Shown piece after piece: positions 12,200-59,207 of a stretch of 64,000 bases of DNA (its first letter is position 1; each line of letters opens with the position of its first letter). Below the pieces are notes generated by a model. That model did no database searches. It was given only the letters and a program-made list of their open reading frames with translations, and was not told where the DNA came from. Source of the stretch: Dehalococcoidia bacterium (lineage in GTDB: Bacteria; Chloroflexota; Dehalococcoidia; Lucifugimonadales; Lucifugimonadaceae); NCBI GenBank assembly GCA_965205245.1, contig CBDBGE010000005.1, positions 888,770 through 952,769 of the forward strand, given 5' to 3'. Made by a program: the position numbers and the translations under genes.

Positions 12200-13135
12200 A
12201 TGAGCACGCATAGATTTTCACAGCCGCTCAACGCTGGCCTGCATCCCGGTAACGTCGTCAGGGTGACGTGGTGGGGCGACTCCACGATCGCCATTCAGAG
12301 CGCCGATCGAACGATCGTCATCGATCCGTCGGCGAACCTGGAGCAGGACGACTTCGATTTCGTGTTCTGCACGCACGAACACTACGCGCATTCCGACCCC
12401 GAAACAGTGGAACGCCTGACGCGCAGCAGCCGTTTCAAACGCATGTACATCGCACGTTCATGTCTCTACCCGTCCGACAAACCCCACGCTCGTTATCTGC
12501 GGTTCCTTAGCGACCCTCTCTGGCAAATAGAGAAGTACGTGATTTTCTATCCCAAGCACTACGATCACACCGTCCCCCGGGGCGCTGAAGGAGACACAGC
12601 GCGATTGGCCGGGACTGGCCGTGGAGCATGGTCGGAGGAGATCGCTTCAGGAGCCTGGTCGCCGGGCGGCGGCACTCCGCGGCCGTTCGCAGGGATCGAC
12701 GAGATTTGGACCGACGGCTGGCACATCGAAGGCATGGAAATGATCGGCGACGACCCCGAGGTGCCGTATCCCGTTCGTGGAGCCATGCCACAGTTGGGCT
12801 TCCTTATAGAAGACCTCAGTTCCGGCGTTTCGTTCTGCCACCTCGGCGCCAATCGAAAGTCCTACCCAGAGATGGAAGCGGTCCGCGGGCGAGTCGACAT
12901 CCTTTTCCTCCATGTCGGCAGAATGAGCCCCGGCGACGAGGATGAGGCGCTGAGACTCATTGCGCCGCGCTGCGTCGTGCCAGTGGGGTGGCGGACCGGG
13001 GTCGAGGCATCAGACGACGGTGATTTTGGGCCGGTGGTGAATCCCGAAAGTTACGTCCAGAGGCTGAATGAAGTCGCCGATGACTTGGGGTTCGCGGTGC
13101 GACAACTATCTCCCGGTGTGGCGTACGGAGTTTAG
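12200..13135 (+). CDS. MBL-fold (UlaG-like) protein with a degenerate metal motif
   Basis: VTWWGDSTIAIQSADRTIVIDP...FCTHEHYAHSDPE. The HxHxDH motif reads HEHYAH, with Asp replaced by Ala. Confidence 0.65.
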   Translation: MSTHRFSQPLNAGLHPGNVVRVTWWGDSTIAIQSADRTIVIDPSANLEQDDFDFVFCTHEHYAHSDPETVERLTRSSRFKRMYIARSCLYPSDKPHARYLRFLSDPLWQIEKYVIFYPKHYDHTVPRGAEGDTARLAGTGRGAWSEEIASGAWSPGGGTPRPFAGIDEIWTDGWHIEGMEMIGDDPEVPYPVRGAMPQLGFLIEDLSSGVSFCHLGANRKSYPEMEAVRGRVDILFLHVGRMSPGDEDEALRLIAPRCVVPVGWRTGVEASDDGDFGPVVNPESYVQRLNEVADDLGFAVRQLSPGVAYGV

Positions 13136-13195
13136 TCACGGCGACTTAATGCCTGGTGAAATACACGCTCACGCGGTCGATGAGGGAACATTGCG

Positions 13196-14143
13196 ATGAA
13201 TGAAAGCACACCCACTCTCGATGTCGGATTGGCCAACGGCTCCGACGTTCGGCTCACGTGGTGGGGCAACGCCACGGTGGTCATCGAGAATGGCGACCGC
13301 GCCATCGTCGTCGATCCATACGTTCACCCCCAACGCGGCAGGTTCCAGTACGCATTCTGCTCCCACGAGCACTACGACCACGCCTACCCCGAAACCGTGA
13401 AGCGCCTGGTCGAGGGAGAGGGATTCAAGAAGATCATTATTCCCAGGTCCTGCCTGTATCCCTCCACCCGCTTTTTCTCGCGCCAGTTGGCGTTCCTGGA
13501 ACCGGAGCAGTACATCGTGCTCTATCCGAAGCACTATGACAGGTCCGCCACCCGTACCGGTGACTCGAAGTACGTGGGCCACTCCGACGCCTGGACCGAA
13601 GGCGAAGAATCGATCTTCCCGGAACCCCGTGAACTGCACATGGACGATTGGCACGTCGAAGGGTTCGAGATGGTCGGAGAGGACCCTGAATTACCGTTTC
13701 CGCTCAGCGGCCCCATGCCGCAACTCGGCTTCTTCATAGAAGAACTGCAGTCCGGCGCGTCTTTCTATCACTTCGGCGACAACCACTGGACCTATGAGGA
13801 AATGTCCGCCGCCGCAGGAAGGCTCGACATAATGCTCCTGCCGATCGGCAAAATGGGGGTCGACGAGGACGCTCGGGCGATGGACCTGATGAAGCCCAAG
13901 ATCGTCATCCCGATCCACTGGAGATACGAAGGGGAGGACTACCCCATTCCCGCCCTGTATCAACGACACGAGCCGCCGGACCAACAGATCCGCGGCTACC
14001 ACCTGCCGCACCCGGGCGACCCACCATACCCCGGCCAGCCGCATAGCCCATTCGAGTACATCGAGCAGTTGGAAGAGCGCGCTCGCGAACGCGGCATCAC
14101 CGTGGCCCAGATCAAGGCGGGAATCCCCCACCGCGTAGTGTGA
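13196..14143 (+). CDS. MBL-fold (UlaG-like) metallo-hydrolase
   Basis: LTWWGNATVVIENGDRAIVVDP...FCSHEHYDHAYPE has an intact HxHxDH motif. It is a paralog of 12200..13135. Confidence 0.7.
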   Translation: MNESTPTLDVGLANGSDVRLTWWGNATVVIENGDRAIVVDPYVHPQRGRFQYAFCSHEHYDHAYPETVKRLVEGEGFKKIIIPRSCLYPSTRFFSRQLAFLEPEQYIVLYPKHYDRSATRTGDSKYVGHSDAWTEGEESIFPEPRELHMDDWHVEGFEMVGEDPELPFPLSGPMPQLGFFIEELQSGASFYHFGDNHWTYEEMSAAAGRLDIMLLPIGKMGVDEDARAMDLMKPKIVIPIHWRYEGEDYPIPALYQRHEPPDQQIRGYHLPHPGDPPYPGQPHSPFEYIEQLEERARERGITVAQIKAGIPHRVV

Positions 14144-29954: not shown

Positions 29955-31451
29955 ATGCCCGAACGCCGCAACCTCGTTTTCATATGCACAGACCAACAAC
30001 GAACAGACACGATGGCCGCGTACGGCAACGACTGGATAGAGACGCCCAATCTCAACAACCTGTCGGCGCGCAGCTTCATCTTCGAAAACGCGTACATAAC
30101 CCAGCCGGTCTGCTCTCCCGCCCGCGCCAGCATCATGACCGGCCTCTACCCGCACTCGGCCGGGGTGATCAAGAACTCCAACCCGCACCGCGCCAACAGC
30201 AATCTGACGCCGGAAGTGCAGACCATCGCCGAGATGATGTCTGACGACTATCTCTGCGCCTACTTCGGCAAGTGGCATCTCGGCGACGACTTGTCGGCGC
30301 AGCACGGATTCGAGCGATGGCTTTCGGTCGAAGACGCCCACGACGATGACTACCCCAACTATCACCGCAAAGAACACCGGTTCAGGAAATCAGACTACTT
30401 CAAGTACCTGGTGTCGAAGGGCCACGTTCCGGAAGGCGACTACGACGGCTACAAGTCGTTCACCCAACATCAACGCGGATTTCTCCCCGAAGAAGACGCC
30501 ATGGCCACGTTCCTCGGTGACAACGCCGCCGAGTTCATCCGTGAACAACAGGACTCGGACCGCCCCTTCATCCTGTACGTGATGATGTTCGAGCCGCACC
30601 CGCCTTACAACGGACCGCTGAACGACCTCTACGATCCGGAAGAACTGCCCGTAGGACCGAATTTCCTGAAAAAGCCGGAAGACAATTTCGCACTGTTCAG
30701 CCGGATTCGGGCAGACCAATACCTTGGCGGCGACGACCGAAGCGAGGAGCTCGAGTCGGAAAGCGACTGGCGAAGACTGCGCGCCCGCTACTACGGCAAC
30801 GTGACCCTCATGGACCGCGGCGTCGGCAAGATCCTGCGCGCCCTCGATGAGACGGGGCAGGCGGACGATACCATGATCGTGTTCACGACTGACCATGCAG
30901 ACTCGCTCGGCGACCGCGGCATGCTCGGCAAACGGGCCTTCTACGACGAGGTAGCGCGAGTGCCGTTACTGTTTCACGTCCCGTGGATTTCCAGAGACGA
31001 GCAACGCCTGCCCGGCCAGTTCGGCCACGTCGATCTCACGCCCACGATCCTCGACCTGCTGGGCCAGGATGTGCCGACACATCTCCAGGGCGCCTCGCGT
31101 GCGCCCGCGCTGCGCGGGCACACAACGTTGGAAGAGGACGACGTCTTTATGCAGTGGCACGGCGAGCCGCCCACCATCAGCCTCGGCAACCCCGACGTCG
31201 AAATCATGGCCGGCGTGCCCTGGCGTTCGATCGTTTCAGGCGAACGTCAACCGGACGGGACCGTTCAGCGCTGGAAGCTGAACCTGTCGCCCGGCGACCA
31301 GTGCGAGCTGTTCGACCTGACAAACGATCCCTGGGAGCAGATCAACCTCTTCGACGATCCGGCCTACCGCGACCGCGTCCGCCTCCTGGCCGGCCGCATC
31401 CGCACCTGGCAGTTCCAGACCGGGGATACGCTGCCCTTACCGGCGGTCTAA
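29955..31451 (+). CDS. Cys-type sulfatase (arylsulfatase family)
   Basis: An RBS (GAGGAA) precedes ATG 29955. LVFICTDQQR...QPVCSPARASIMTG carries the C-x-P-x-R formylglycine motif. No signal peptide. Confidence 0.85.
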   Translation: MPERRNLVFICTDQQRTDTMAAYGNDWIETPNLNNLSARSFIFENAYITQPVCSPARASIMTGLYPHSAGVIKNSNPHRANSNLTPEVQTIAEMMSDDYLCAYFGKWHLGDDLSAQHGFERWLSVEDAHDDDYPNYHRKEHRFRKSDYFKYLVSKGHVPEGDYDGYKSFTQHQRGFLPEEDAMATFLGDNAAEFIREQQDSDRPFILYVMMFEPHPPYNGPLNDLYDPEELPVGPNFLKKPEDNFALFSRIRADQYLGGDDRSEELESESDWRRLRARYYGNVTLMDRGVGKILRALDETGQADDTMIVFTTDHADSLGDRGMLGKRAFYDEVARVPLLFHVPWISRDEQRLPGQFGHVDLTPTILDLLGQDVPTHLQGASRAPALRGHTTLEEDDVFMQWHGEPPTISLGNPDVEIMAGVPWRSIVSGERQPDGTVQRWKLNLSPGDQCELFDLTNDPWEQINLFDDPAYRDRVRLLAGRIRTWQFQTGDTLPLPAV

Positions 31452-32673
31452 CTCGTCGCCGTAAACTCCGCCGCTTCTTCGGAGCCGCCGGTGGCGTCGC
31501 CCTCGCTGTACGAATGCGCACCGGTGCCTGCCAGCCCGCCGCCTTGCACTATCAGGTATTCGTCCCGTATCGGCCGGCCGTCAAAATAGCACTCCAGGAT
31601 TTCCCGGACGCCGGCGGCGTAGCGGGCTTGTGCAGATAGTGACGTGCCCGATGTGTGCGGGGTCAGCGCGTGGTTGGGCGCGCTCCTCCAGGGATGGTCG
31701 TTCGGCGGAGGTTGCGGGAACCACACGTCGCCTGCATACCCTGCCAGTTGGCCGCTCTCCAACGCCCTGACGATAGCATCGCGGTCGCAGATCTTGCCGC
31801 GGGCGGTGTTGACGATGTACGAGCCCCGCTTCATCTTGCTGATCAATTCGTCGTCAAACATGTGCTCCGTCTCGGGGTGGAGCGGGCAGTGGATGCTGAC
31901 CACGTCACAAACGCTGACCAGGGACTCGACGTTGTCGTGGAAGGTGAGACCTAGCTCCTCTTCTACCTCCGCCGGCAGCCTGTGCCTGTCGTTGTAGTGC
32001 AGGTTCACGTCGAACGGCTTCATTCGCTTCAGGACCGCCAGGCCAATTCTTCCTGAAGCCACGACTCCGACGTCCATGCCTTCGATGTCGTACGACCTGG
32101 AGATGGCGTCGGCGATGTTCCAGCCGCCCCTGACTACCCACCCGTATTGCGGGATGTAGTCCCTGACCAACGCCAGCATCTGCATGACAGCGTGTTCTGC
32201 CACGCTGATGCTGTTGCACCAGGTCACCTCTGCCACTGTGATGTTCCTGTTGATCGCAGCCTGGAGATCGACGTGGTCCGATCCGATACCGGCCGTAATG
32301 GCCATCTTCAGGTTGGGCGCTTTCGCGATCCGTTCCGCCGTCAGGTACCCGGGCCAGAAGGGCTGCGAGATGACAACGTCAGCGTCGGGTAACTCGGCCT
32401 CGAACTCGGAGTCGGGCCCGTCCTTGTCCGAAGTCACCACAAAATTGTGCCCACGGTCCTCTAGGAACTCCCTGAGGCCCAGCCCTCCGGAAACCGAACC
32501 CAAAAGGTGACCCGGTGTAAACCCAAGCGAGTCCGGTGTCGGCAGCGACTGGCCATCGGGGTACTGGTCGATGGTCGGGATGTTGTCCAGTAACGGGCAT
32601 ACTCCGGCGGATACCCCGCGATGGGGTCGTCGTACAGGACACACAGAATTTTTTGGGCGGAACCGTCGGTCAT
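31448..32673 (-). pseudogene. fdh: NAD-dependent formate dehydrogenase, 1-nt frameshift near the 5' end
   Basis: Near-collinear with classical NAD-FDH: KILCVLYDDPIAGYPPEYAR | LLDNIPTIDQYPDGQSLPTP...VVTSDKDGPDSEFE...GIGSDHVDL...PLHPETEHM...GDVWFPQPPP...GAHSYS. The N-terminal 25 aa lie in ORF 32461..32673. One T appears to be missing at about 32592-32593. Confidence 0.85.
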
Positions 32674-32759
32674 AGGGCATCTCCAATAGTTGTCTCGGGC
32701 AATTATATGCCCGAATCGGCCGTCCGGCCCCTTCCCTCAACGGGACGGCCGTAAGTCGA

Positions 32760-33842
32760 ATGGGACAGTTTAGAATGTGCGTACCACCGGTGACCGGTAT
32801 GCGGAGCGATATGAGACTTACTTCAAGCGTCGTCGAGATGAGCGATGCGTTCGATGCCATCGAATCTTTCTATGAGCGCGGGTGGAGCGACGGACTGCCG
32901 ATCGTTCCGCCGACGGAAGACGCGGTCGGCAAATTCCTGCAAGCCGCAGGCCTCGAGCCAGGCCACGTGCTGGGAACGGAGCCCGTAAAGGGAGGCGTCG
33001 CCACCGCCGAAAAGGTCGCGATCAACTCGATAATGGCAGGCTGCCGGCCCGAATACATGCCGGTCATCACAGCCGCGGTGGAGGCCATCACGGCCGAAGA
33101 GTTCAACCTTCACGCCATTACGGCCAGCACGATGGGCGCCAGTATTCTCGTGCTCATTAGCGGCCCTGCCGTCACAGACCTCGGCGTTAACTCGGGCATC
33201 TCCGCATTCGGACCGGGCCACCGGGCGAACGCGACAATCGGGCGAGCGCTCCGGCTGATCGTTATCAACCTGTTTGGATCTCGGTCGGGCGAGATAGATA
33301 AGGCGACGCTCGGCCATCCCGGCAAGTACACCTGGTGCTTCGGAGAGTCGGCTGACCGGTCTCCGTGGGTGCCGATTCACGCGGACATGGGCTCGCCTGC
33401 AGACGGCAGCGCGGTAACGCTGGTCTCGGCCCTGAGCGGCATACAGGTCGGTGAGCATGCGGCGAACACCCCCGAGGGTATCCTCGACGCATTTGTAAAC
33501 GCATTCTGGGCCACCGCGCCCGGGATGAGCGAGGTGCTGATAGTGCTGTGCCCGGAACACGTGGCTTTCTTCCGGGACGCCGGCTGGCCGAAATCACGCG
33601 TGGGCGAGTACCTTTATGAAGTCACAAAACGTCCGGCCTCGCTGTGGTCAAATCCGACGCCGAGGTCCCACAATGTGGTGGGCAGCGAGCCGGCCAGCGC
33701 GCTCGAACGGCCCGAGTCGGCAATTGTGACGGTGGCCGGCGCTGACGGCGGCGGATGGAGCGCGGTGATACCGACCTGGTCGAACGGCCACCGGTCGAAA
33801 GTGGTCACCAGGCCCGTTACTATGACGGCAAACAACTCATAG
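32760..33842 (+). CDS. conserved hypothetical protein (start uncertain)
   Basis: Long ORF with coding-like composition (...FYERGWSDGLPIVPPTE...). I recognise no motif. Alternative starts lie at 32811 and 32838. Confidence 0.6.
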   Translation: MGQFRMCVPPVTGMRSDMRLTSSVVEMSDAFDAIESFYERGWSDGLPIVPPTEDAVGKFLQAAGLEPGHVLGTEPVKGGVATAEKVAINSIMAGCRPEYMPVITAAVEAITAEEFNLHAITASTMGASILVLISGPAVTDLGVNSGISAFGPGHRANATIGRALRLIVINLFGSRSGEIDKATLGHPGKYTWCFGESADRSPWVPIHADMGSPADGSAVTLVSALSGIQVGEHAANTPEGILDAFVNAFWATAPGMSEVLIVLCPEHVAFFRDAGWPKSRVGEYLYEVTKRPASLWSNPTPRSHNVVGSEPASALERPESAIVTVAGADGGGWSAVIPTWSNGHRSKVVTRPVTMTANNS

Positions 33843-33865
33843 CGACTGCAAGGGAGGCATTCCCC

Positions 33866-34411
33866 ATGACCAACCAGGAAACCCTACGCGTGATGGACCC
33901 GACCTTCGTCCCTGCAGTCGCGTCGCCGGCCATGGCAGAAAGGCCGCGCGACCTGAACGGCAAGACGGTAGGTCTGCTGGCCAACGACAAGCTGAACGCC
34001 CCGGAACTGCTCGACGCAATACACGAGGTCCTCACTGACAGCTTCTCCCTGGCGCCCGCTCACCGCGTGAACAAGGGCAACGCAAGCAATCCCGCCGACC
34101 CAGACCTGCTCGACAAGATCGCAGGCGACGTGGACGTGGTGATCACTGCAAACGGCGACTGAGGGAGCTGCTCGTCGTGCAGTCTGCACGACTCCATAGA
34201 ACTCGAAAAGCGCGGCGTCCCCGCGGTGGCCATCTGCACGGAGCCGTTCGAGACCAGCGCCCGCGCCATGGCAAACCTGGGCGGTATGCCCGACTACCCG
34301 TTCGCGGTGGTCGAACACCCGATAGGCAGCCTGACGCCGGAACAACTGCACCAGCGGGCCATCGAAGCGGCGCCGCAGGTCATCAGGACACTGCTGGCCC
34401 GTCCGGAGTGA
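33866..34411 (+). CDS. probable selenoprotein with in-frame UGA in a D-U-G-S-C motif (UGSC-type)
   Basis: An RBS (AGGGAGG) lies 8 nt before ATG 33866. ORFs 33755..34162 and 34226..34411 are in the same frame, separated only by TGA 34160-34162, with no other stop between them. Read-through gives ...VVITANGD-U-GSCSSCSLHDSIELEKRGVPAVAICTEPF.... Confidence 0.7.
34174..34192 (+). promoter_or_regulatory. SECIS-like hairpin 11 nt downstream of the in-frame UGA
   Basis: GTCGTGCA-gtc-TGCACGAC gives 8 bp, or 7 bp with an AGUCU loop. The apical loop contains G and U. Confidence 0.5.
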
Positions 34412-34429: not shown

Positions 34430-35134
34430 CTATGTTCGAAACAGTCCCAGGAATCGGTCCTCGTACTCTTCGAACAGGTCCCATTTCTTCAGTTCCCGCA
34501 TAACCTCCGACGGCTCGATACTCCCTTGCCTGGCGCCTTCGAGCATGCGCTCGACGCGCCGGCGGGCGTCCGCCGGAACGCCGTCCGACATCTCCAACAT
34601 TCCGGCGGACCGCATCTGCGCAACGTTCCTTTGGGCCGAGTCGTTAGTCAACTCGTAGATGAACTTGATCAGCGACACGTCCCACAATTCGTCGATGCCG
34701 ATTATCACCGCTTCGAGCCCCGATTCGCGGGCGTCCAGGTCCCGTGCGATCCGGCTCGCCACCTCGTCGACGCCGCCCGAAACGATATCCATGCCGCCCG
34801 GCTCGTTCTTGTACGAATAGAGGAGGCCCGGCGAGTCCGGACCCTGGGTGCGGGCGAGTTGCTCCAGGAACTCCCGCGCTCCGGCGCTGAACGACTCCGT
34901 CTTCAGCAGGAAATAGGGAGTCACCACCTGCGGCCTTTCGGCCTTGACAACTCCACCGCGAACAACAGTTTCCACGGTCTCGACCGGGTTCACGTCCCGA
35001 AACGCGGGTTCGGTAACCAGGTGGTACCTGATCTTGGTTACACCGAACGTCTCGAGCGCCTGCCGCGGCGGCCGGACGACCCGAGTGCGCTCGAGGACCA
35101 TGTCAAAACGGGGGTCTCTTCTTCGCTCTTTCAC
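34430..35134 (-). CDS. hypothetical protein
   Basis: 234-codon ORF from a GTG, with an alternative ATG at 35101. No recognisable motif. Confidence 0.55.
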   Translation of the reverse strand: MKERRRDPRFDMVLERTRVVRPPRQALETFGVTKIRYHLVTEPAFRDVNPVETVETVVRGGVVKAERPQVVTPYFLLKTESFSAGAREFLEQLARTQGPDSPGLLYSYKNEPGGMDIVSGGVDEVASRIARDLDARESGLEAVIIGIDELWDVSLIKFIYELTNDSAQRNVAQMRSAGMLEMSDGVPADARRRVERMLEGARQGSIEPSEVMRELKKWDLFEEYEDRFLGLFRT

Positions 35135-38464: not shown

Positions 38465-39724
38465 TTAAGCTGCCCGCGTAGGTCCTACGATTCCCGCTTC
38501 GAACAGGCGCGCGATCTCTTCATCGCCCAAGTTGGCGATGTCCCGGAGAATCTCCGCTGTGTGTTCGGCAAACCTGGGGGTTGGGCGGCGTACCGATGCG
38601 GGTGTCTCTGAGAACTGCCAAGGGAAACCAAGCGATGGGTGTTTTCCAACCCCGGCCGAGTAGTCGACATCTACGAAAAAGTCGCGATGTCCATATTGAG
38701 GATCGTCAAGTAGGTCGGCCATGCTCATCACCGCGCCGGCCGGCACGCCCGCGGCCTGCAGGATGTTCATCGCGTCACCGGGAGAACGTCGGACCGTCCA
38801 AGACTCCACGATCTCTTCCGAGGCCTGGCGATTCTTCAGTCGACTTTCAGCAGTGGCGAACCGTTCATCTCCCAGCAGTTCGGCGCGCCCGACGCACTCC
38901 AGCAGCGCGTTCCATTCCTCGTCGCTGGTCACCGAAACGGCGATCCAATTGTCGTCTCCCTCGCAGGGAAAGCACCCGTGCGGCGACCACGCGGGGTGAC
39001 CGTTCGCGCGAGGACCGGGAGGGTCCCCCGTTTCGGCCAGTTCGATCAACGGCTCCGGCATTGCGAACGTGACCGCCTCGCGCTGGGCGATTTCGATGTG
39101 CTGGCCCTCCCCGGTCGCGTCACGATGCCAGAGCGCCGTCAGGATGGCCGAAACGGCAAACAGGGCAACGGTGGGATCGGGGTAGAAGACTCCGGTCGAC
39201 ATCGGTGTTTCGGGGTCGTAGCCGGTTATTGCCGCAAGTCCGACCAGGCACTCCTGTTGCGGACCGAAAGCGACGAACCCGCTGTCAGGGCCGGTCGCCC
39301 CAAACGCCGGCATGGAGACCATCACCAGGTCCGGTTTGACTGTCCTGAGTTGTTCGAAGTCGATGCCCAGTCGCTGCGTGACACCGACGCTGAAGTTCTC
39401 GATCACAACGTCTGCAGATGCGACCAAGGACTTGAGTAGTTCGACTCCCTCGTCCGCCTTCAGGTCGATGGCGATGCTGCGTTTGTTGCGGTTGTACTCC
39501 ACGAATCTCCCGGCCCGGTTCCGCGGTTCATCGCCCGGGTCGTCGTCCGGATACGTGCCCCCGGATGACACGTTCGGGTCCGCCGGTCCGCGCTCGGGAT
39601 CGGGGCGATGCGGACCCTCGACCTTGACAATGTCGGCGCCGAGGTCGCCGAGCATGCGCGTTGAATAAGGCCCTGACCAGACCTGGGAAAGGTCGACAAC
39701 CCGTATTCCGTCCAACGGTCCCAT
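38465..39724 (-). CDS. family-III CoA-transferase (CaiB/BaiF)
   Basis: The N-terminus LDGIRVVDLSQVWSGPYSTRMLGDLGADIVKVE is a canonical CaiB-family signature. Confidence 0.85.
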   Translation of the reverse strand: MGPLDGIRVVDLSQVWSGPYSTRMLGDLGADIVKVEGPHRPDPERGPADPNVSSGGTYPDDDPGDEPRNRAGRFVEYNRNKRSIAIDLKADEGVELLKSLVASADVVIENFSVGVTQRLGIDFEQLRTVKPDLVMVSMPAFGATGPDSGFVAFGPQQECLVGLAAITGYDPETPMSTGVFYPDPTVALFAVSAILTALWHRDATGEGQHIEIAQREAVTFAMPEPLIELAETGDPPGPRANGHPAWSPHGCFPCEGDDNWIAVSVTSDEEWNALLECVGRAELLGDERFATAESRLKNRQASEEIVESWTVRRSPGDAMNILQAAGVPAGAVMSMADLLDDPQYGHRDFFVDVDYSAGVGKHPSLGFPWQFSETPASVRRPTPRFAEHTAEILRDIANLGDEEIARLFEAGIVGPTRAA

Positions 39725-39728
39725 TCCT

Positions 39729-40943
39729 TTACACGACCTTCATTTCGGCTAGTCTGTCGAATTCCTCGACCCCAACGCCGAGTTCGTCTAGGAACACGTC
39801 GCGGGTGTGCTCGCCCAACGCCGGCGCCGGTCGGTTCGTCCAGCCAATTTGTTGGGCCCGGTACGGCCGTGACGGCAAGTCGACCTCGTCGCCATCGGGC
39901 AATTTGGTCTTTTCCAAATATTCCCGCGCCCTGAGATGCTCGGAGTTGACGACATCGTTCGCGTTCGCGACATACGCGGCGGCCAGCCCGCCGGTCTGCG
40001 CGCGCTTGTAAACGTCTTCCTTGCCGTGGCCCATCAGCCAATCGGTGAAGACCGTTTGCAGCATGTCTGCATTTGCCACCCTGCCCTCTTCCGTCTCCAG
40101 CGCCGGGTCGTCCATTTCCGTCCGGCCGATCATCTTTGCGAAGGGTCGCCACCAATTGCGGTTTCCGCCCCGTCCTCCGACGATCACCCACCCGTCGGCA
40201 CATCTCCGAAGGCTGCCCGGGACCTCGGTCTTGGGTTCAACCCTGTTCGGTGTTTGGCCCGTGTAGGTCTGCCGTTTGAGGGCCGCGCCCGCAACACTGG
40301 TCCATGCCTCCAGAATTGAGACATCGACGAACTGCCCGCGCCCTGTTCGTTTGCGAGACAGGAGCGCAGCCATGGCGGCGACGTACCCGTGCAGGCCGCC
40401 GTGGACCTGTGCAAAGTGGCCGCCCTTCTGCAACGGAGGCTTGCCCGGCACACCGGCGAGTTTCATCTCACCGCTCATGGCGTGAAGCACAATCTCGGTC
40501 GCCGCGAAGTCTGCGCACGGGCCGGAACGGCCGAATGGAGTTATCGACACGTGGACCAGCCGCGGGAACTTCTTCTGGGCAGCTCTGGTCACGTCGGGTT
40601 CGGGTCCAAGAGCGCCCTCACGCGTGCCGTCGATTAGAACGTCGGAAGCGGCCAGCAATTGCGCCAGCGCGCCCTTGCCGTCCGTACTGCCGACATCGAG
40701 CGTAACGCTGCGCTTCGACATGTTCAGGTAATGAAAATACCCCGGCGAATGCCCGTTGCGGTGCGACTCGGCGTCCGGCCCGGTCTGACGCCCATCCCCA
40801 TCCCGACGGGGCGGTTCGACCTTGATCACGTCTGCGCCCTGGGCGGCAAACATCTTTCCGGCGAACGACTCGGCGATGCCCTGCCCCATCTCCACCACCC
40901 GCAGGCCGTTGAGCGTCGGCGTCGCCGGTCCGTTTGAGCGCAC
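39729..40943 (-). CDS. family-III CoA-transferase (CaiB/BaiF)
   Basis: LNGLRVVEMGQGIAESFAGKMFAAQGADVIKVE. GTG start. Confidence 0.85.
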   Translation of the reverse strand: MRSNGPATPTLNGLRVVEMGQGIAESFAGKMFAAQGADVIKVEPPRRDGDGRQTGPDAESHRNGHSPGYFHYLNMSKRSVTLDVGSTDGKGALAQLLAASDVLIDGTREGALGPEPDVTRAAQKKFPRLVHVSITPFGRSGPCADFAATEIVLHAMSGEMKLAGVPGKPPLQKGGHFAQVHGGLHGYVAAMAALLSRKRTGRGQFVDVSILEAWTSVAGAALKRQTYTGQTPNRVEPKTEVPGSLRRCADGWVIVGGRGGNRNWWRPFAKMIGRTEMDDPALETEEGRVANADMLQTVFTDWLMGHGKEDVYKRAQTGGLAAAYVANANDVVNSEHLRAREYLEKTKLPDGDEVDLPSRPYRAQQIGWTNRPAPALGEHTRDVFLDELGVGVEEFDRLAEMKVV

Positions 40944-40945
40944 GT

Positions 40946-41833
40946 CTATACCAGACCGAGTTCGGCCGCTTCGGCCAGCGTGTTTCTAGCGCGTTCCACG
41001 ACCGGGACGTCCACCATTGCGCCATCGAGGTCCAGGGAGCCCCGTCCTTCTGCCGAGGCCGCGTCCCAGGCCGACATCACGCGCCGCGCATACTCAATTT
41101 CGTCCGGTTGCGGTCCGAACAAGCGCCGGATCGGTCCCAGTTGGGCCGGGTGAATGGCGAACTTGCCCTTGAAGCCCAATTGTGCGGCTTCGGCGATGTC
41201 CGACTCCAGGCCTTCGGAGTCACGGAAGTTCACGTATGGGGTGTCCAGTGGGGTCACACCGGCTGCATGAGCCGCCAGGGCGACGAGCCCTCGCGGGATC
41301 CGCACCTCCTCGCCAGACGACGTGCGCCTGATTCCCACGTCTCGTGTGTAGTCCTCCGCGCCGAACGTGATCGCGGAAATCCGTTCCGACGCGCAGGCGA
41401 TTTCGTACGCGTGTTGGACCGCAGCCGCCGTCTCTATCCACAAGACCAGTTTCGTCTGACCGGAGGACAGCCCGGCACTCACTTCAGCGGCATCCAGCAG
41501 TCGGCCGTACTCTGAAATATCGGTTGGCGAGGTGATCTTTCCGACGCTGATCGCAAACACATCCGGATGGACGACCGCCGCGATGTCGTCCTCCGCCAGC
41601 CCCGTGTCGAGCGAATTGACCCTGACCACTATTCTTTGACCGGCTTTCGCCAGGGCGGGGACCATGTCGGCGACGAGGTCCCGCGCCGCAGCCTTTTCGG
41701 CGATAGGCACCGAGTCTTCCAGATCGGCCACTACAGCGTCGGTCGCGAACCCGGTCGCCTTTTCCAGCATCGACCGGCGATTGCCGGGTACGAAGATCGG
41801 ATTGCGGATTCTTGACTGACCGTTAGAGTTCAT
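40946..41833 (-). CDS. HpcH/HpaI-CitE family acyl-CoA lyase (citryl-, malyl- or citramalyl-CoA lyase-like)
   Basis: IFVPGNRRSMLEKATGFATDAVVADLEDSV... is typical of CitE-like lyases. Confidence 0.8.
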   Translation of the reverse strand: MNSNGQSRIRNPIFVPGNRRSMLEKATGFATDAVVADLEDSVPIAEKAAARDLVADMVPALAKAGQRIVVRVNSLDTGLAEDDIAAVVHPDVFAISVGKITSPTDISEYGRLLDAAEVSAGLSSGQTKLVLWIETAAAVQHAYEIACASERISAITFGAEDYTRDVGIRRTSSGEEVRIPRGLVALAAHAAGVTPLDTPYVNFRDSEGLESDIAEAAQLGFKGKFAIHPAQLGPIRRLFGPQPDEIEYARRVMSAWDAASAEGRGSLDLDGAMVDVPVVERARNTLAEAAELGLV

Positions 41834-41857
41834 CTGCTACGGGAACCGTGCTCACGT

Positions 41858-42766
41858 CTAGGAGTGCAGTCCATCGAGCCAATCCGTCACCACCGCAATG
41901 AACTGATTCGGATTATCGCCCGGTACTAGGTGCCCGGCGCGTTCGACCTCCACGACCTTGCAGTTCTGCATGCGCCCCGCCATCTCGGCTGCCGTTTCGG
42001 GGGCAAGTATGTCGCTTTCAGCGCCGCGCACCACCAATGTCGGGCACGAAATTTGCTCCAGCCGCCGCCACTGTTCATCGGCCGGCACATTCTCGCGGGG
42101 TCGGTTCGGGTCCCTGAGCACGCGGTCGTATTTCCAGGTCCACTTGCCGTTGGGTGCCTGCCGGACCTTGTGTATCAACGTGTCCCGGACCTCCTGCACG
42201 CTGCGTCGCGGGTTGTACTTGTGGATGCGCTCCACGAACTCTTCCCACGTGTCCAGTTCGTCCGGCAGCGTGACGAAGTCCATGATCCGCCTGCCGCCTG
42301 ACTGGCGGGTACGAGGAGCCTTGGGCCAGGTAGGGCCGGAGTCGACGATGACCAGTCCGCGCACCTTTTCGGGGCGGCGCGACGCGTACACATACGAACT
42401 TCGGCCGCCCATCGACAGGCCGACGAGCGTCACGGGAACGCCGCCGAACTGGTCTATGAACCGGTCGAGGTCGCGCTGGTGGGCGGCCGTCGAGTAATCG
42501 GAATCTTCCGCCCAGTCGCTGTCCCCGTGCCCGCGTGCGTCGAGGCTGATTACCCGGTGTTTCTGGCCCAGGGCCAGCGCCGTGTAGTCCCACGAGTGGG
42601 CGTTCTGTGCAAACCCGTGCAGCAGTATGACCGGCGGCGCGTCTTTCGGCCCCCAGTCCAGGTAGCTAAGCTCCAGTTCGCCGGTATCGAACCTGCGTTC
42701 CGTCGGCGACAGTTCGTCGGCAAATAGGACTCCGGCCTTGCGCGCCGCTTCGTAGAGTGTGGCCAT
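41858..42766 (-). CDS. alpha/beta-fold hydrolase
   Basis: VILLHGFAQNAHSWD and the nucleophile elbow GLSMGG. Confidence 0.8.
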   Translation of the reverse strand: MATLYEAARKAGVLFADELSPTERRFDTGELELSYLDWGPKDAPPVILLHGFAQNAHSWDYTALALGQKHRVISLDARGHGDSDWAEDSDYSTAAHQRDLDRFIDQFGGVPVTLVGLSMGGRSSYVYASRRPEKVRGLVIVDSGPTWPKAPRTRQSGGRRIMDFVTLPDELDTWEEFVERIHKYNPRRSVQEVRDTLIHKVRQAPNGKWTWKYDRVLRDPNRPRENVPADEQWRRLEQISCPTLVVRGAESDILAPETAAEMAGRMQNCKVVEVERAGHLVPGDNPNQFIAVVTDWLDGLHS

Positions 42767-42918
42767 GGGCAAAATGTATAACGGAAACTGGCGGTAGTCG
42801 AACGTTTTCGGCCAACGACCCGGCCTGAAAACATCTGCCCCGTGCAGCGCCTAGCCGGTAAGATCATCTGGCTCGCAGGCAACCGCGCCGGGGCGTTACA
42901 GATAAGGAACGATGCGAC

Positions 42919-43431
42919 TTGGAAACTGTCGAAGAAAAGCGGTGGGAGTACGAAGCCGTGGAGGTGGGTCAGAAGGGGACACCCTTCACCGTCGAGGTCA
43001 CAAGCGACCTTATATCGAAGTACGCGCAACGCGTGCGAAATCCAAACCCGGCCTACCAGGAGGAGGACGAACAGCTCCTCGCCATGCCCACCATGGTGAT
43101 TGCAGCCGCTCCCTTGCGACGCTTCGACGTTGCCGAGGCGAACGGCTACGTGGCGCTGGAACTCGTCCAGGACAATCCCCGTCAGACACCGTTTGCCAAG
43201 TGCGAAGTACGGTGGCACAGCCCGATGCGCGCTGGCGACACCATAACCAGCGTCGGCAGTGTGGTCGACAAGTACGAGCGGCGCGGCAGTAAATTCGTGA
43301 CTTTCAGGGTCGAAGCCCGGAACCAGCACGACGAGTTGGTAGCCGAATACGACTACACGAGCATCTTCGAATACGCGAAGGGCCAGAAACACGCGGCCGA
43401 CCAGGGCAAAGCCACGGAGGTTTCCCGGTAA
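42919..43431 (+). CDS. MaoC-N/hotdog-fold hydratase subunit
   Basis: 170 aa hotdog-like protein with a TTG start. It is translationally coupled (TAATG) to the next hotdog gene. Confidence 0.65.
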   Translation: METVEEKRWEYEAVEVGQKGTPFTVEVTSDLISKYAQRVRNPNPAYQEEDEQLLAMPTMVIAAAPLRRFDVAEANGYVALELVQDNPRQTPFAKCEVRWHSPMRAGDTITSVGSVVDKYERRGSKFVTFRVEARNQHDELVAEYDYTSIFEYAKGQKHAADQGKATEVSR

Positions 43432-43871
43432 TGACTGACCAGCACGTTACCTACGACTCGATAGCGGTGGGGGACGAGATCCCGTCGTTCGAGACCTATG
43501 AGACCCAGGAGACGATAGACAACACCCGGATGCCGGAAATCACCGCCAGACCGCCGCGGCCGAATATCCACACCGATCCCGAATTTGCCAGGAAGGGACT
43601 GTTTGCCGGCACGGTAAACGGCGGCGTCATCACGATGGCCTACGTCACGACCATGCTGGAGCGATGGTTTCCCGCAGCCAGCTTCTACGAAGGCGGCAGG
43701 CTGGAGTTCAAAGCGATCCAGCCTTTCCGGCCAGGCGACACCGTGGTCTTCACCGGCGTCGTGACGGGAAAGCGCCGGGTCAACGGCAAGGGCCTCATCG
43801 ACTGCGAAATCAAGGGCACGAACCAACTCGGCCAGCTAATGGGATTCGCCACCGCCACTCTGTCCGTTTAG
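43431..43871 (+). CDS. MaoC-like (R)-specific enoyl-CoA hydratase subunit
   Basis: 146 aa. NIHTDPEFARKGLFAGTVNGGV is the MaoC dehydratase motif region. Confidence 0.75.
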   Translation: MTDQHVTYDSIAVGDEIPSFETYETQETIDNTRMPEITARPPRPNIHTDPEFARKGLFAGTVNGGVITMAYVTTMLERWFPAASFYEGGRLEFKAIQPFRPGDTVVFTGVVTGKRRVNGKGLIDCEIKGTNQLGQLMGFATATLSV

Positions 43872-43954
43872 GGCTGCGCGGCAGGCCTTTTCCATGGTCA
43901 CCAGGGCGAACAGGGGCGAGGGGAAGAGTGTGCTCCGAACGTAGTTGCAGGCAA

Positions 43955-44275
43955 ATGCGCCGCATTGTGGAGGTCTTCAACACAGGAGACGTGTCGTCAC
44001 TGGACTCGCTGGTTTCGCCCAAATACGTGGATCACCAGGGCATCGGTGGCTCGAAGATATTCGGGACCAGTGGATTCGCCAGCTTGGTGACACGGGCCAG
44101 ACAAGGCCATCCACTGCTACGTGTCGAAATCCTGGAGATCAGTGTCGATGGGGACCGGGTTACGGCCCGGCTTATCTGGACTGAGGCCGATTATGATGCA
44201 AGTCGACAGACGATCGATACCATCCGATTCTCCGACGGGTTGGCGGTTGAGCATTGGGGGGAGCGGTTGGACTGA
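43955..44275 (+). CDS. SnoaL-like / NTF2-fold protein (predicted ester cyclase family)
   Basis: MRRIVEVFNTGDVSSLDSLVSPKYVDHQG... is a typical SnoaL-like N-terminus. The RBS is weak and the start uncertain. Confidence 0.6.
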   Translation: MRRIVEVFNTGDVSSLDSLVSPKYVDHQGIGGSKIFGTSGFASLVTRARQGHPLLRVEILEISVDGDRVTARLIWTEADYDASRQTIDTIRFSDGLAVEHWGERLD

Positions 44276-44363
44276 TACCCGCCCTCTTGGTATCACTTCG
44301 GTGTGAGTCGGACACCACTCAGTGACGAGGTTTTGTAGTTACCGAACAACGCCGGAGCTACTT

Positions 44364-44423
44364 CAAAGGACCAACCAACTCGGTCAGCTAATGGGTTTCG
44401 CCACCGCCACTATGTCCGTTTAG
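44364..44423 (+). pseudogene. orphan duplicate of the last ~60 nt of the MaoC-like gene (43811..43871)
   Basis: It still encodes NQLGQLMGFATATMSV*, against NQLGQLMGFATATLSV* at the real gene end. A 1-nt indel further upstream breaks the frame. Confidence 0.75.
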
Positions 44424-44442
44424 GACCCGCGCCCTACCGGCC

Positions 44443-46860
44443 TCAGATTACGTCCCTGGCCCGCAGTCCGGCGAGTTCGGTCGCGGACTTACCCAGCAGT
44501 TCGGCGAGTATTTCGTCCGTGTGGGCCCCAAGGTCCGGCGGGAGTCTTCGAATGTCCGGCGTCCGACCGTCTATTCGCGCCGCTGCGCCGGGGAACAGGT
44601 CGAGGTGCGGGTGGTCGAGGCGATGCCAGAAGTCGGGCGAAGGCACCTCATCCCTCTCCACAACGTCTGAATTCAGCGTTACGGCAGCGGCGGGCACCCC
44701 GGCCCGCTGCAACCTGTCGGCCAACTCCCACGCGTCCTGAGGGGCGGTCCATGACGCGATGCACTCGTCCAACTCCTCGCGCAAACGCACCCGACCGCTC
44801 AGATCGCAAAAACGGCTGTCAATCGCCCAGACTTCGCCGTTCGCCGCGCTGCACAGGTTGTCCCACTCCCGCTCGCTCCCGACGGCAATCGATATCCAAC
44901 GGTCCTCGCCGCTACAAGGATAGACACCGTGGGGAGACGCGGTAGGGCTCGTGTTGCCGACCGTCGACGCAATCGTGCCGTTGAGCGAGTATTCCAGCAG
45001 CGCCTCGCCGATCATGTTGACGAGGGCCTCCGCCTGCGACAGGTCGATGCGCTGGCCGCGGCCGGTCCCTTCCCGCCGGTACAAGGCCATCGCAATGGCT
45101 GCGGCGCCGTGCACGCCTGCGACCGGGTCCGGCCAGATGTTCACCGAGTTCCGGGGAGCGCCGCCCTCGTACCCCGTCATGGACGCCACACCGGCGTATC
45201 CCTCCATGGTGGCGCCGTTGCTGACGTATCTCGAATGCGGACCGGAACTGCCGAATCCGGGCATGGAAATCACGACGATCCCGGGATTTATCTTCGACAC
45301 TACGTCGTATCCGAGCCCTAGCCGGTCCAACACACCTGCCGAGAAGTTGTCCGCTATCACGTCACAGTGCCGGACCAACTCCTTGAATAGCGACTTCCCC
45401 TCCTCGGTCTTTAGGTTCAGGATCAGAGACCGCTTGGAGCGGTTGAGCTTCAGCCAGTTTCGCCCCTTGTTGTAGATCTTCTGCCCATCCACGTCGTGGT
45501 CCACCGAGATCACCCCGCGCCACGCGTCCATCCGTTTCCACCACTCCAGCTTCAGCACGTCGGCGCCCCAGTCGCCCAGGACCATCGTCATCGTCGGACC
45601 GGCCAGCCGATGCGTGAGGTCCAGAATTCGAACGCCGTCGAGCGGCAACCTGCTGGGACCCGCCTCCCCGGCGCCGTTGGTCATACCGCTGCGCCCGGGA
45701 TTCGTCCGGGTCTCAACAAGCCCGTTGTCACGTCCGAGAAGCGGCGCGGCTTCCAGTTGGCCGGCGGGCGATTCACCGAGAATGAATGGCGGACCCGGAA
45801 AATCGACCTTGCCGACGCCCGGGACCGACACCTGCCTGAAGAATCCACGTTCCCTGAAATGAACGGATTCGACTACGGCTCTGGCGTCGTTGACTTTCGT
45901 AAACAGCACCCGCTTCGACTGGGCCTCGGTCTGCGCATCTTCGCCTCGTTTCGTTGAAAGCCATTCGCGTATCTCTTCCTTCAGAGCGCGTTCGTTGGCG
46001 TGGAATGCGGGTTGGGTCGCGAAACGCGGGTCTTCGGCCAGTTCCGGCTTCCCGATCACTTCAGCGATCGCGCCGATCTGGAAGTAGTAGAGCTGCACCG
46101 ACACGTGCCCGTCGAGGCAAGGCATGACAGCCGACGCATGTTCTCGCCGTTCGTCGGCCGGTTCATCCACCACCGCGGACGAACTGTAGTCGGACATGTG
46201 CGTGAAGAACTTCGTGGCAGACTCAACGGTTGATGAGTCGATGTGACAGCCGACACCGTCCCTGCGCGCCCGGAAAGCCGCGAACATCGTCAGCGCGCAG
46301 GCGTGGGCCCCGGCCATGTAGTGGGCCTGGTAGCCCCCGGCCTTCAGGGGCGGACGACCCCGCCCTCCGACGAGCGACATCAGGCCGCTCATGGCGTAGA
46401 GGTTCAGTTCCGAAATGCTGTATTCGTGAAACTTGCTGCCGGGCGGCGCGATCGGGATCGAGGTAACTACCAGGCGCGGGTTCAAGGACCGCAACGAGGC
46501 AGGTGAAATACCAAGCGACCCAAGGCGCCCCGTTTCGAAGTCCTCGACCAGCACGTCCGAGTTCACCGCGAGTTCCTCGACTGCGGTCCTGCCGTCCCCG
46601 GACTCGATGTCAAGTTCGACGCTGCCCTTGTTGGCGTTCAGGTAGGCAAACAGGACCGATTCCTGCCGACCGTTTTCGTCGCTATAAAACGGCGGTACCG
46701 CCCGCAGAGGGTCGCCATCGCCGGGCTGCTCCACCTTGGTGACCTCTGCTCCGAACATCGCGAGCAGCCTGGTGCAATAGGCGCCGGCAATGCCGCGCGA
46801 TAGATCCAGTACGCGCATTCCGGTCAGCGCAGACGCCGCGGTGGGTTCAACTTTGTTCAT
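44443..46860 (-). CDS. tandem-fused double family-III CoA-transferase
   Basis: Two complete CaiB-like modules sit in one ORF, each with the N-terminal signature: LTGMRVLDLSRGIAGAYCTRLLAMFGAEVTKVE and LDGVRILDLTHRLAGPTMTMVLGDWGADVLKLE. Confidence 0.8.
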   Translation of the reverse strand: MNKVEPTAASALTGMRVLDLSRGIAGAYCTRLLAMFGAEVTKVEQPGDGDPLRAVPPFYSDENGRQESVLFAYLNANKGSVELDIESGDGRTAVEELAVNSDVLVEDFETGRLGSLGISPASLRSLNPRLVVTSIPIAPPGSKFHEYSISELNLYAMSGLMSLVGGRGRPPLKAGGYQAHYMAGAHACALTMFAAFRARRDGVGCHIDSSTVESATKFFTHMSDYSSSAVVDEPADERREHASAVMPCLDGHVSVQLYYFQIGAIAEVIGKPELAEDPRFATQPAFHANERALKEEIREWLSTKRGEDAQTEAQSKRVLFTKVNDARAVVESVHFRERGFFRQVSVPGVGKVDFPGPPFILGESPAGQLEAAPLLGRDNGLVETRTNPGRSGMTNGAGEAGPSRLPLDGVRILDLTHRLAGPTMTMVLGDWGADVLKLEWWKRMDAWRGVISVDHDVDGQKIYNKGRNWLKLNRSKRSLILNLKTEEGKSLFKELVRHCDVIADNFSAGVLDRLGLGYDVVSKINPGIVVISMPGFGSSGPHSRYVSNGATMEGYAGVASMTGYEGGAPRNSVNIWPDPVAGVHGAAAIAMALYRREGTGRGQRIDLSQAEALVNMIGEALLEYSLNGTIASTVGNTSPTASPHGVYPCSGEDRWISIAVGSEREWDNLCSAANGEVWAIDSRFCDLSGRVRLREELDECIASWTAPQDAWELADRLQRAGVPAAAVTLNSDVVERDEVPSPDFWHRLDHPHLDLFPGAAARIDGRTPDIRRLPPDLGAHTDEILAELLGKSATELAGLRARDVI

Positions 46861-46944
46861 ATTGGTAGTGACGTAGCAGTCCCCGGCCGCAAACATGACC
46901 CCAGGTACGAGGCTGCAAAATGGCGGCAACAATCCTACGAAATT

Positions 46945-49465: not shown

Positions 49466-50689
49466 TCAATCCACCCGCGGCGTCACCGTGCCGTACACGC
49501 CGTCGTAGCCGGGATCGACATCTACCCGGCCCTCTCGAACGGCCAGAACAGCTTGCGCGAGCCGCGTCCCTGAAACGCGTTCAAGATCGGCTGACGGTGC
49601 GCCCGTAAGCACGTTCAACTCACCCACGAACTCGTCCACCAGCGCCTTGTAATGCCGCCCTACCGTCTTCGTGGCGGGGCCGACCGACAGGCTGAATGAA
49701 AGCAATTCCCTCAACGGGACGAGCGACCGAAACGGCGGCCGGTGTTCCGGCCCTGTGACGAGTCCATCGCCATCAACTGCGGCACAGCCAGGCTTCGCCG
49801 CCAACTCGGTCACCCGGTTCAGGACACCTAGCGTAAGCGGCTTACCGCAGGCCGGGCACGTCGACACCTGCCCGTCTCCACCGCCCGGCTCGAACCGCAC
49901 GCCACACTTCCGGTGGCCGTCAAGGTGATACTTCCCATGGCCGGGGTGAAATTCGACTGTCTCGACGATGTCCTGGTTCCGCACCGCGTTGGCGAGAGAC
50001 GTGAAATTCGGTTCCGCCCTGAACACCGTCAACTCCCTGCCCATATTTCGCGGCGAATGGGCATCCGAGAACGACAAGATCGACCGCGAATCCACGTCCG
50101 GCACCATCCAATTCATGGCGGGGTCGCTCGACAGCCCCGTCTCGATGGCCGGGATGCGGTCCGCGGCGTCACCAAAGCACTCTTCGACCGAGTCGAAGCC
50201 CGATTTCGAGCCGTACATGCCGTACCAGGGAGTCCACACGTGGGCCGGTATGACGACGCACCTTTCGTCGGCCCTCCACGCAATCCCGGCCATGTCCCGC
50301 GCGGATAGCTTCAGCATCGGACGCCCGTCGGACGACAGGTTCTGGACTGTTGCGAGTCGCCTGTTTATTTGGTCGACGGCGTCGAAGTCGGGCGCCCAGA
50401 CCAGGAGATGCACCCGCCGGCTCTTCCCATCGTGCCGCCAGATGCAAGAGACCTCCGTGGCGAGCAAGAATTTGCCGCCGTGCGCCGTGTACACGCCCTC
50501 GTCGAACTCCGTCAGTTCGCCGCGCATCTCCTCCATCCACGCCGGGTGCGTGAAGTCCGGGGCCGCGAGCAGATCGATGCCCTTGGCGCGGCCCGAGTAA
50601 GCCAACGCGCGGAGATCGAGAGACCGGCTGGTCGCTAGCGAATAGCGGGAGTGGAGATGGAGGTCGGCGACAAGGCGGGAGGATGCCAC
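49466..50689 (-). CDS. endonuclease Q-like PHP-domain protein with a zinc finger
   Basis: ADLHLHSRYS, ETGLSSDP, SFSDAHSP, GKYHLDGHRKCG and CPACGKPLTLGVLNRV are laid out as in EndoQ/TIGR00375-type proteins. The family is recognised from memory. Confidence 0.65.
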   Translation of the reverse strand: MASSRLVADLHLHSRYSLATSRSLDLRALAYSGRAKGIDLLAAPDFTHPAWMEEMRGELTEFDEGVYTAHGGKFLLATEVSCIWRHDGKSRRVHLLVWAPDFDAVDQINRRLATVQNLSSDGRPMLKLSARDMAGIAWRADERCVVIPAHVWTPWYGMYGSKSGFDSVEECFGDAADRIPAIETGLSSDPAMNWMVPDVDSRSILSFSDAHSPRNMGRELTVFRAEPNFTSLANAVRNQDIVETVEFHPGHGKYHLDGHRKCGVRFEPGGGDGQVSTCPACGKPLTLGVLNRVTELAAKPGCAAVDGDGLVTGPEHRPPFRSLVPLRELLSFSLSVGPATKTVGRHYKALVDEFVGELNVLTGAPSADLERVSGTRLAQAVLAVREGRVDVDPGYDGVYGTVTPRVD

Positions 50690-58417: not shown

Positions 58418-59207
58418 TTACCTTAATTCGCCGCCCGAAGCGATCATTCCGCCGTCGACCAAAAGCGTTTCCCCGTTGACGTAGCCGCCCATGTCGGAAC
58501 ACAGGAACGTGACCGCGCCGGCAATGTCACTGGGAACACCACCGCGTTGCGCAGGTATTCGCGCCTTGATTCCCGGCCGGTCCTTCATGTCATCCGGCTG
58601 CGGCTCCAGCCCGTACTCCGGCAGGCTATTGTCGATGTAGCCGGGCGCAATGCAGTTCGCCCTGACGCCCGTGCCGGCCAGGTCCACGGCCAGCCCCTTC
58701 ACCATCCTGCGCAGCGCAGCCTTGGCGACGCCGTACGCGGTCCAGTCCGTAAACGCCCTAAATGCGTGGACAGAGGCAAGGCAAACGATGCTTCCGCCGC
58801 TACCCTGACGGACCATCTCCCGCGCCGCCTGCTGGGACGCAAAGAAGTAACCCCTTCAGCGACAGGTCCATCACCTGGTCCCAAAACTCCTCATCCGTTT
58901 CGAACAACGGCCTGGATTGGGGTTGGAATATCGCGTTGTTGACCAGGATGTCGATCCTGCCATGCACGTCGAGGAAGGAGTCGATCATCCCGTTGATTTC
59001 ATCCAGTCGGCTGACGTCGGCGATGTGCACGGACGCGGAGCTACCGCGTTCTTTCGCAAGCGCGGCAGTCTGACGGGTGACCTCGTCGTCGAGGATGTCG
59101 TTCACGCCAACGTCAGCGCCCTCCGCGGCCAACCGCACGGCGATGCCTCGCCCGATGCCCTTCCGGGCCCCCGTAACCAGCGCTTTCTTTCCGTCCAGCA
59201 GTCCCAT
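58418..59207 (-). pseudogene. short-chain dehydrogenase/reductase, 1-nt frameshift in a G4/C4 run
   Basis: ORF 58800..59213 gives LDGKKALVTGARKGIGRGIA...DLSLKG. Removing one C from the CCCC at 58851-58854 continues with YFFASQQAAREMVRQGSGGSIV... of ORF 58418..58816. Confidence 0.85.

Follow-up and report, generated by a model that had tools for sequence, protein, structure and literature searches.

A UGSC-family selenoprotein gene

Positions 33866–34411 of the 64 kb stretch of DNA analysed here (the window) very probably form a single gene for a 181-residue selenoprotein of the UGSC family, in which the in-frame UGA at 34160 is recoded as selenocysteine (Sec) and a hairpin at 34174–34192 acts as the SECIS element. 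The family is already known, having been described since 2005–2008, and as its place among the most abundant aquatic selenoprotein families has been on record for as long, the recoding itself adds nothing new biologically. UGSC is a recoded gene, which standard gene finders either split or cut short, with the result that the family is systematically mis-annotated in metagenomes. Its near-universal pairing with a very large unannotated family and a Sec loop like that of GrdB and PrdB provide a testable handle on function, and the gene pair is a well-defined, abundant and uncharacterised target. The features of the locus, all on the forward (+) strand, are as follows.

32799–33842, +: conserved partner gene of approximately 347 aa, from an uncharacterised family; start placed by alignment of the start sites of homologs
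33851–33857, +: Shine-Dalgarno sequence AGGGAGG, 8 nt 5' of ATG 33866, read from the sequence
33866–34411, +: predicted UGSC-family selenoprotein gene, 181 codons including Sec99, based on NF041046 and PF24696 matches, homolog alignment and purifying selection on both sides of the TGA
34160–34162, +: in-frame UGA, predicted to encode Sec as residue 99, the first of the U-G-S-C motif; aligns with a nearly invariant Cys, and the TGA is conserved in 52 distinct orthologs and in L166 and L167
34169–34171, +: TGC codon of Cys102, the C of UxxC, which is presumed to be the resolving thiol and varies hardly at all in alignment A1
34174–34192, +: putative SECIS core hairpin with an 8 bp stem (GUCGUGCA/UGCACGAC) and the apical loop GUC, assigned from the bSECIS criteria, the conserved register and the AGU codon

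A first-pass annotation of the window had claimed that the ORFs at 33755–34162 and 34226–34411 lie in one frame, which runs for 181 codons from ATG 33866 with no further stop and requires no indel. The ORF list and the sequence bear this out at every coordinate: past the TGA at 34160–34162, the next stop in the frame is only at TGA 34409–34411. The AGGGAGG ribosome-binding site that it had named is present at 33851–33857, and is also kept in the close relatives L166 and L167, two syntenic loci whose partner proteins are 90% and 95% identical, respectively, to that of the window and which both keep the TGA. The read-through product contains ...VVITANGD-U-GSCSSCSLHDSIELEKRG..., and the peptide around the Sec residue is ...ITANGD-U-GSCSSCSLHD.... 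No further credible in-frame TGA of the Sec type was found elsewhere in the 64 kb window.

Membership of the UGSC family

When the product was scored with U replaced by C, it reached 146.6 bits against NF041046, 'UGSC family (seleno)protein' (curated cutoff 125; model positions 2–146 of 147), and 196.5 bits against Pfam PF24696, 'UGSC' (cutoff 25; model positions 2–171 of 172). Both models are matched end to end above their cutoffs, and the first-pass assignment to the 'UGSC family (seleno)protein' was right. On these matches, we place the window gene in the already catalogued UGSC selenoprotein family. The name 'UGSC-containing protein' is that used by Zhang & Gladyshev in their GOS selenoproteome, where UGSC is among the most abundant selenoprotein families of marine and freshwater metagenomes, with 255 Sec forms versus 21 Cys forms and a UxxC motif (PMC2398784). 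The same paper also names a 'UGSC/Unknown_1 fusion' (PMC2398784), and a 2026 review gives UGSC together with NF041046 (PMC13188914). The window gene shares with the family the position of the U-G-S-C motif, a length of approximately 180 aa and the dichotomy of Sec and Cys forms. It has one more Cys, placed three residues further along (UGSCSSC), a feature not shared family-wide, and nothing essential differs.

The first-pass annotation had proposed an alignment with Cys-containing members of the family as a check on the recoding. In alignment A1, the UGA column holds Cys in 22 of 24 homologs; D98 is invariant, and C99(U), G100, C102 and S103 are nearly so. The Cys lies exactly at the UGA, in the context NGD-C-G[AS]CS, and the homologs that carry it are full-length proteins of approximately 180 aa that span the junction between the two ORFs.

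Sec forms were collected by scanning metagenome DNA with the pattern N-G-D-TGA-G-x-C-S-S. Approximately 70 of the 80 loci listed are genuine UGSC genes in which the C-terminal half beyond the TGA is conserved, and at least 52 Sec-form genes that are distinct within the 60 nt around the UGA keep the TGA. The TG of the Cys102 codon is invariant in these DNA sequences (52/52), though the scan pattern itself demanded TGY there. A Cys-form set (L006–L043) was obtained from a contig scan with the peptide pattern [NI]GDCG[AS]CS[ST], which returns Cys forms alone, and was used as a negative control.

The closest database match to the window protein (P0029, 57% identity) is 101 aa long and stops at ...ANGD. 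Among the best 150 clusters at 50% identity found by an exhaustive HMMER search with the N-terminal 98 residues, approximately 140 are proteins of 90–105 aa that end exactly at the Sec position and only about four are full-length Cys forms. One match of odd length, P0250, was considered as a fusion of UGSC with its partner and rejected.

Short products of this kind are what would be expected if the TGA were a nonsense mutation or a real stop, with translation yielding just 98 residues and the frame beyond in decay; gene callers give products of 98–101 aa in every public relative, and damaged genes do exist in the window, such as an SDR gene split into 58800–59213 and 58418–58816. We regard this explanation as extremely improbable. 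The TGA occupies the identical codon in 52 distinct orthologs and is aligned with the Cys of full-length homologs, both the Pfam and the NCBIfam match run through it from one end of the model to the other, and decay is ruled out by the pattern of substitution beyond it, described below. The first-pass annotation had held that homologs ending at the equivalent of residue 98 would speak against a selenoprotein. However, the short homologs are gene-caller truncations whose DNA continues in frame: in the DNA of P0029, the TGA is read through into 82 more conserved codons. The public catalogue entries concerned are P0029 and P0198–P0346, and truncation at the Sec codon is close to universal for this family in public protein catalogues.

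Purifying selection beyond the TGA

Over the 82 codons past the TGA, pairwise comparisons between the window, L166 and L167 revealed 17, 14 and 23 codons that differ synonymously and, in each case, none that differ nonsynonymously (17/0, 14/0 and 23/0). Summed over the three pairwise comparisons, 54 differing codons downstream of the TGA are synonymous and 0 are nonsynonymous. Change confined in this way to synonymous positions is the strongest evidence that the UGA is decoded, and it excludes a pseudogene, a true stop and a split into two genes.

The last of these would pair a 98 aa N-terminal protein that ends at TGA 34160 with a C-terminal protein starting from GTG 34226, or from GTG 34177 in another frame. 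It is true that 34226–34411 stands as an ORF of its own in the ORF list and that in L166 a 47 aa C-terminal piece, which matches PF24696, was called separately. Nevertheless, the 34163–34225 interval codes for the most conserved part of the family (GSCSSCS..ELEKRG) and has undergone synonymous change only, there is no ribosome-binding site preceding 34226, and the Cys forms are single polypeptides of approximately 180 aa. Two genes are therefore almost inconceivable here. The alignment with Cys forms, the conserved TGA and the synonymous-only change downstream support the earlier claim that the UGA is recoded and is not the product of damage.

A hairpin that fits a bacterial SECIS element

In bacterial recoding, SelB carrying Sec-tRNA(Sec) is recruited by a SECIS element within the gene. 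The hairpin described in the first-pass annotation was confirmed as a perfect 8 bp stem at 34174–34192; it reads GTCGTGCA-gtc-TGCACGAC and starts 11 nt after the UGA. Folded alone, it has a free energy of -10.9 kcal/mol, and the spacing from the UGA to the loop is 19 nt. The published bSECIS model (PMC13188914, Fig. 2) calls for an apical loop of 3–9 nt on a stem of 4–16 bp with a minimum free energy of -7.5 kcal/mol or below, a G within the first two loop nucleotides, most often with G or U after it, and 16–37 nt from the UGA to the loop. The window hairpin agrees with the model on all four of these published criteria (4/4), and the fit to a SECIS element that had been claimed from its position and its G/U-containing loop holds up against the model (PMC13188914).

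Perfect 8 bp hairpins with a loop of 3–9 nt occur 14 times on the + strand of the 64 kb window, compared with an average of 10.8 in shuffled sequences, and the chance of finding one at SECIS spacing from any given UGA is approximately 0.005. The whole 61 nt segment is not unusually stable (z = -1.33), with 19 of 200 shuffles folding equally well or better. The signal is the specific hairpin rather than overall stability.

Conservation of the hairpin was judged by explicit counting of pairs and by codon resampling. In the 52 Sec-form sequences, 89.7% of cells are paired in the register of the hairpin, versus at most 55% in registers shifted by 1–3 nt. Columns 27 and 39, which are both third-codon positions, form G-C in 39 sequences, G-U in 12 and A-U in one, with no mismatch, and the loop begins with G in all (52/52). 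The stem also codes for the conserved residues S-S-C-S-L/V-H/Y-D. With the peptide fixed and the codon usage of the window applied, the full hairpin arose in 2.1% of synonymous resamplings. The closing A and the G-U of the loop are supplied by an AGU Ser codon, and AGU is the rarest Ser codon in the window (4.5% of Ser codons), yet it is used by 50 of the 52 homologs. As the hairpin is rare in resampling and AGU has been kept in 50/52, these observations point to selection acting on the RNA and not on the protein alone.

Other measures of the RNA are less pronounced. Covariation is modest, with three pairs and six cells showing double changes, a score that was reached by 61 of 500 shuffles, and the sequences are interrelated. 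RNAalifold, run on an alignment of the 52 Sec-form segments, did not recover the hairpin and gave a weak consensus structure of another kind. Rfam searches of the whole window at gathering thresholds, and of 34100–34300 at E<=10, found no SECIS-like family. Only 21 of the 52 core hairpins reach -7.5 kcal/mol alone. In 23 distinct variants (...SSSSVYD..., the L001 type), a pair of nonsynonymous changes that occur together, Cys to Ser and His to Tyr, turns a G-C pair of the stem into a C-U mismatch (alignment A2, columns 29/37), which weakens the core hairpin to -4.2 kcal/mol; the TGA is still present in these Ser-Tyr variants.

Among the Cys-form genes, 10 of 38 form seven of the eight pairs (7/8) at the SECIS register with stems of other sequence, of which CTCCCGGA/TCCGGGAC is one example. 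The hairpin is thus not confined to the Sec forms. The Cys-form hairpins may be relics of a SECIS element left by conversion from Sec to Cys, or may be a by-product of the peptide sequence.

Compared with bacterial SECIS elements of the type found in Escherichia coli fdhF, the window element has in common a stem-loop that is immediately 3' of the UGA and inside the ORF, a small loop starting with G-U, an 8 bp upper stem and a spacing (19 nt) that falls within the range of 16–37 nt. It differs in that its loop is just 3 nt long, in lacking the bulged U that fdhF has, in the C-U stem mismatch present in a large subgroup of its orthologs, and in not being covered by any Rfam model.

Decoding of the UGA

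A third explanation accepts that the UGA is read through but assigns it one of the standard amino acids, Trp, Cys or Gly, through near-cognate decoding or a variant code, rather than Sec. In its favour are the failure to find Sec machinery in the window or in the 1.33 Mb of related DNA that was fetched, and the similar hairpin kept by 10/38 Cys forms, as a hairpin alone is no proof of dependence on SelB. We consider it very unlikely. Of the 54 long ORFs in the window, 26 end in TGA, many of these with full-length domain matches, and this indicates that the organism uses the standard code. In homologs, the catalytic Cys occupies the position of the UGA, the classic Sec/Cys signature, and the downstream hairpin falls within the bSECIS model, with its G-U loop kept via a rare codon. 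In addition, UGSC has been curated as a family of selenoproteins (NF041046; PMC2398784), and selenoproteins abound in related Dehalococcoidia (PMC13326102).

With regard to the machinery, selA, selB, selD and tRNA-Sec are all missing from the 64 kb window, where the sole tRNA gene is for tRNA-Pro, and none of the four was detected in the 1.33 Mb of fetched related DNA using Aragorn and a SelD probe that was an approximate query. Genes for the Sec machinery are normally unlinked to the client genes. For this reason, their absence from the window and from the fetched loci is uninformative. The use of Sec is on record in the lineage, as BSepDB includes Dehalococcoidia MAGs with 46–49 selenoprotein genes (PMC13326102). 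From comparative evidence, we consider insertion of Sec at residue 99 very probable, as we do a SECIS role for the hairpin.

A conserved partner gene upstream of UGSC

The gene directly upstream of UGSC ends 23 nt 5' of the UGSC start, and the two are probably in one operon. Its longest ORF begins at ATG 32760; as homologs begin MRS(D/N)MRLTS, the start is likely to be ATG 32799 or ATG 32811. The product is 57% identical to that of the gene directly upstream of UGSC in L001, and the named homologs, which are 55–58% identical, are from Chloroflexi/Dehalococcoidia MAGs. The family has more than 4,356 homologs, and 0 of these have a Pfam domain; no Pfam relative was found even at E<=1 among 34 members, and the partner has no NCBIfam match and no match among PDB sequences.

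Of 78 Sec-form loci, 64 have the partner immediately 5' of UGSC. The exceptions are mostly loci without upstream sequence, and several have the partner elsewhere in the locus. In nearly all Cys-form loci, which come from Alphaproteobacteria, Actinomycetota, Burkholderiales, Gammaproteobacteria and one archaeal MAG, the partner is directly downstream of UGSC on the same strand. As the adjacency survives this change in gene order, it argues for a physical or functional complex of the two proteins. No recurrent third gene, such as one for a reductase, was found beside the pair across the loci compared. In one Cys-form locus, the pair is followed directly by a TrxR-like gene. The neighbours found, among them VanZ, YbeY, amidohydrolase and MFS, reflect lineage synteny.

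Within the partner family, Cys95 and Cys193 are invariant and Cys264 is nearly invariant, while His118, His186, His233 and His267 are invariant. A structural model of the partner (pLDDT 79.5) gave a weak match to the alpha subunit of class I Fe-S fumarate hydratase (E 2e-4, TM approximately 0.3). We treat the match as a lead only and do not accept it as a fold assignment.

The gene on the other side of the partner, at 31448–32860 on the - strand, encodes an NAD-dependent formate dehydrogenase (NF005750, 656.8 bits) that is not a selenoenzyme. Its 470 aa ORF over-extends N-terminally into the partner gene. As its relatives are 406 aa long, translation probably begins at ATG 32680. The gene does not keep its place beside the UGSC pair, as other genes are inserted between them in L166 and L167.

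Fold of UGSC and likeness to selenoprotein B

An AlphaFold model of a Cys homolog (P0001, pLDDT 86.5) is an alpha/beta/alpha sandwich of five beta-alpha units. Its U/C-x-x-C motif lies where a strand passes into a helix, at the N-terminus of the helix. Its fold matches in the PDB are generic ones, with flavodoxin-, CheY-, TIR- and PurE-like proteins (TM <0.5), and do not include thioredoxin. A search of PDB sequences with a UGSC profile produced non-significant matches to AhpC and FtsZ alone. In this model, the UGSC fold looks flavodoxin- or Rossmann-like, which differs from the guess in the literature, 'likely Trx-like'.

A local resemblance to the selenoprotein B group was found in the segment that bears the Sec residue. 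Weak matches to TIGR01917 (GrdB) were obtained for 35 of 36 UGSC members, the best with an E-value of 1.3e-5 and located at this segment, and local weak matches at the same segment were to GrdF in 31/36 members and to PrdB in 29/36. UGSC and the selenoprotein B proteins (GrdB, GrdF, GrdH and PrdB; TIGR01917, TIGR01918 and TIGR04483) share the UxxC motif and are alike over approximately 45 residues around the Sec. Both also pair with a separately encoded subunit. However, UGSC is 181 aa long versus approximately 430 aa for GrdB, and the partner has no detectable similarity to pyruvoyl proproteins. The window protein scores 18.9 bits against TIGR01917 (cutoff 602.2) and 15.9 bits against TIGR01918 (cutoff 65.45), and because these scores are far below the family cutoffs we rejected UGSC as a member of the GrdB/PrdB selenoprotein B family. 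In a Pfam survey of the long ORFs in the window, none of grdA, grdE, grdC, grdD or prdA was found near UGSC. Judged by sequence, UGSC would be at most a distant relative or a mechanistic analogue of GrdB/PrdB.

A possible two-subunit selenoenzyme

For synthesis of the full-length protein, the SECIS hairpin at 34174–34192 inside the UGSC coding sequence would bring SelB with Sec-tRNA(Sec) to the ribosome. UGSC could then form a two-protein system with the product of 32799–33842 and serve as the redox-active subunit. In such a system, the selenol of Sec99 would attack a partner-bound substrate or disulfide, and Cys102 would resolve the intermediate to form a selenenylsulfide, which would in turn be reduced by a thioredoxin-type system. 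The closest mechanistic precedent would be the Sec loop of the GrdB/PrdB reductase selenoproteins. We offer this role, of a selenol/thiol subunit that acts on a partner-bound target and is recycled via a selenenylsulfide, only tentatively. It is likewise conceivable, though we would not put it more strongly, that UGSC and its partner make up a widespread two-subunit selenoenzyme, especially abundant in marine SAR202-type Chloroflexota, in which the partner binds the substrate and a Sec loop distantly related to that of GrdB/PrdB carries out the reduction.

Other features of the window

The remaining genes of the window include those for transporters and catabolic enzymes (CoA-transferase III, enolase-superfamily, cyclase, amidohydrolase, SDR and sulfatase), a content that would fit a SAR202-like Chloroflexota genome. 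Tandem paralogs are present at 7389–10090, 12200–14143 and 38465–46932, comprising three PF04199 cyclases, two Lactamase_B_3 proteins and three CoA-transferase family III proteins, one of which is a double-domain protein of 829 aa. Such expansion of paralogs is typical of SAR202-type Chloroflexota.

In the SDR gene at 58418–59213 (- strand), the ORFs 58800–59213 and 58418–58816 overlap and match domain halves 1–112 and 121–235, respectively. Either the gene is frameshifted or the assembly has an indel here, in keeping with an earlier remark on frameshifted genes in the window. The ABC permease ORF at 1323–2003 (+ strand) matches only positions 1–84 of the 184 in BPD_transp_1 and may also be truncated or frameshifted.

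Two further ORFs on the - strand have a high GC3 and no Pfam match. One, at 49466–50689 (407 aa), adjoins an MFS_3 transporter gene. The other, at 34430–35134 (234 aa), which also has no NCBIfam match, is convergent with UGSC, and its counterpart has been kept as a 223 aa gene in both L166 and L167.
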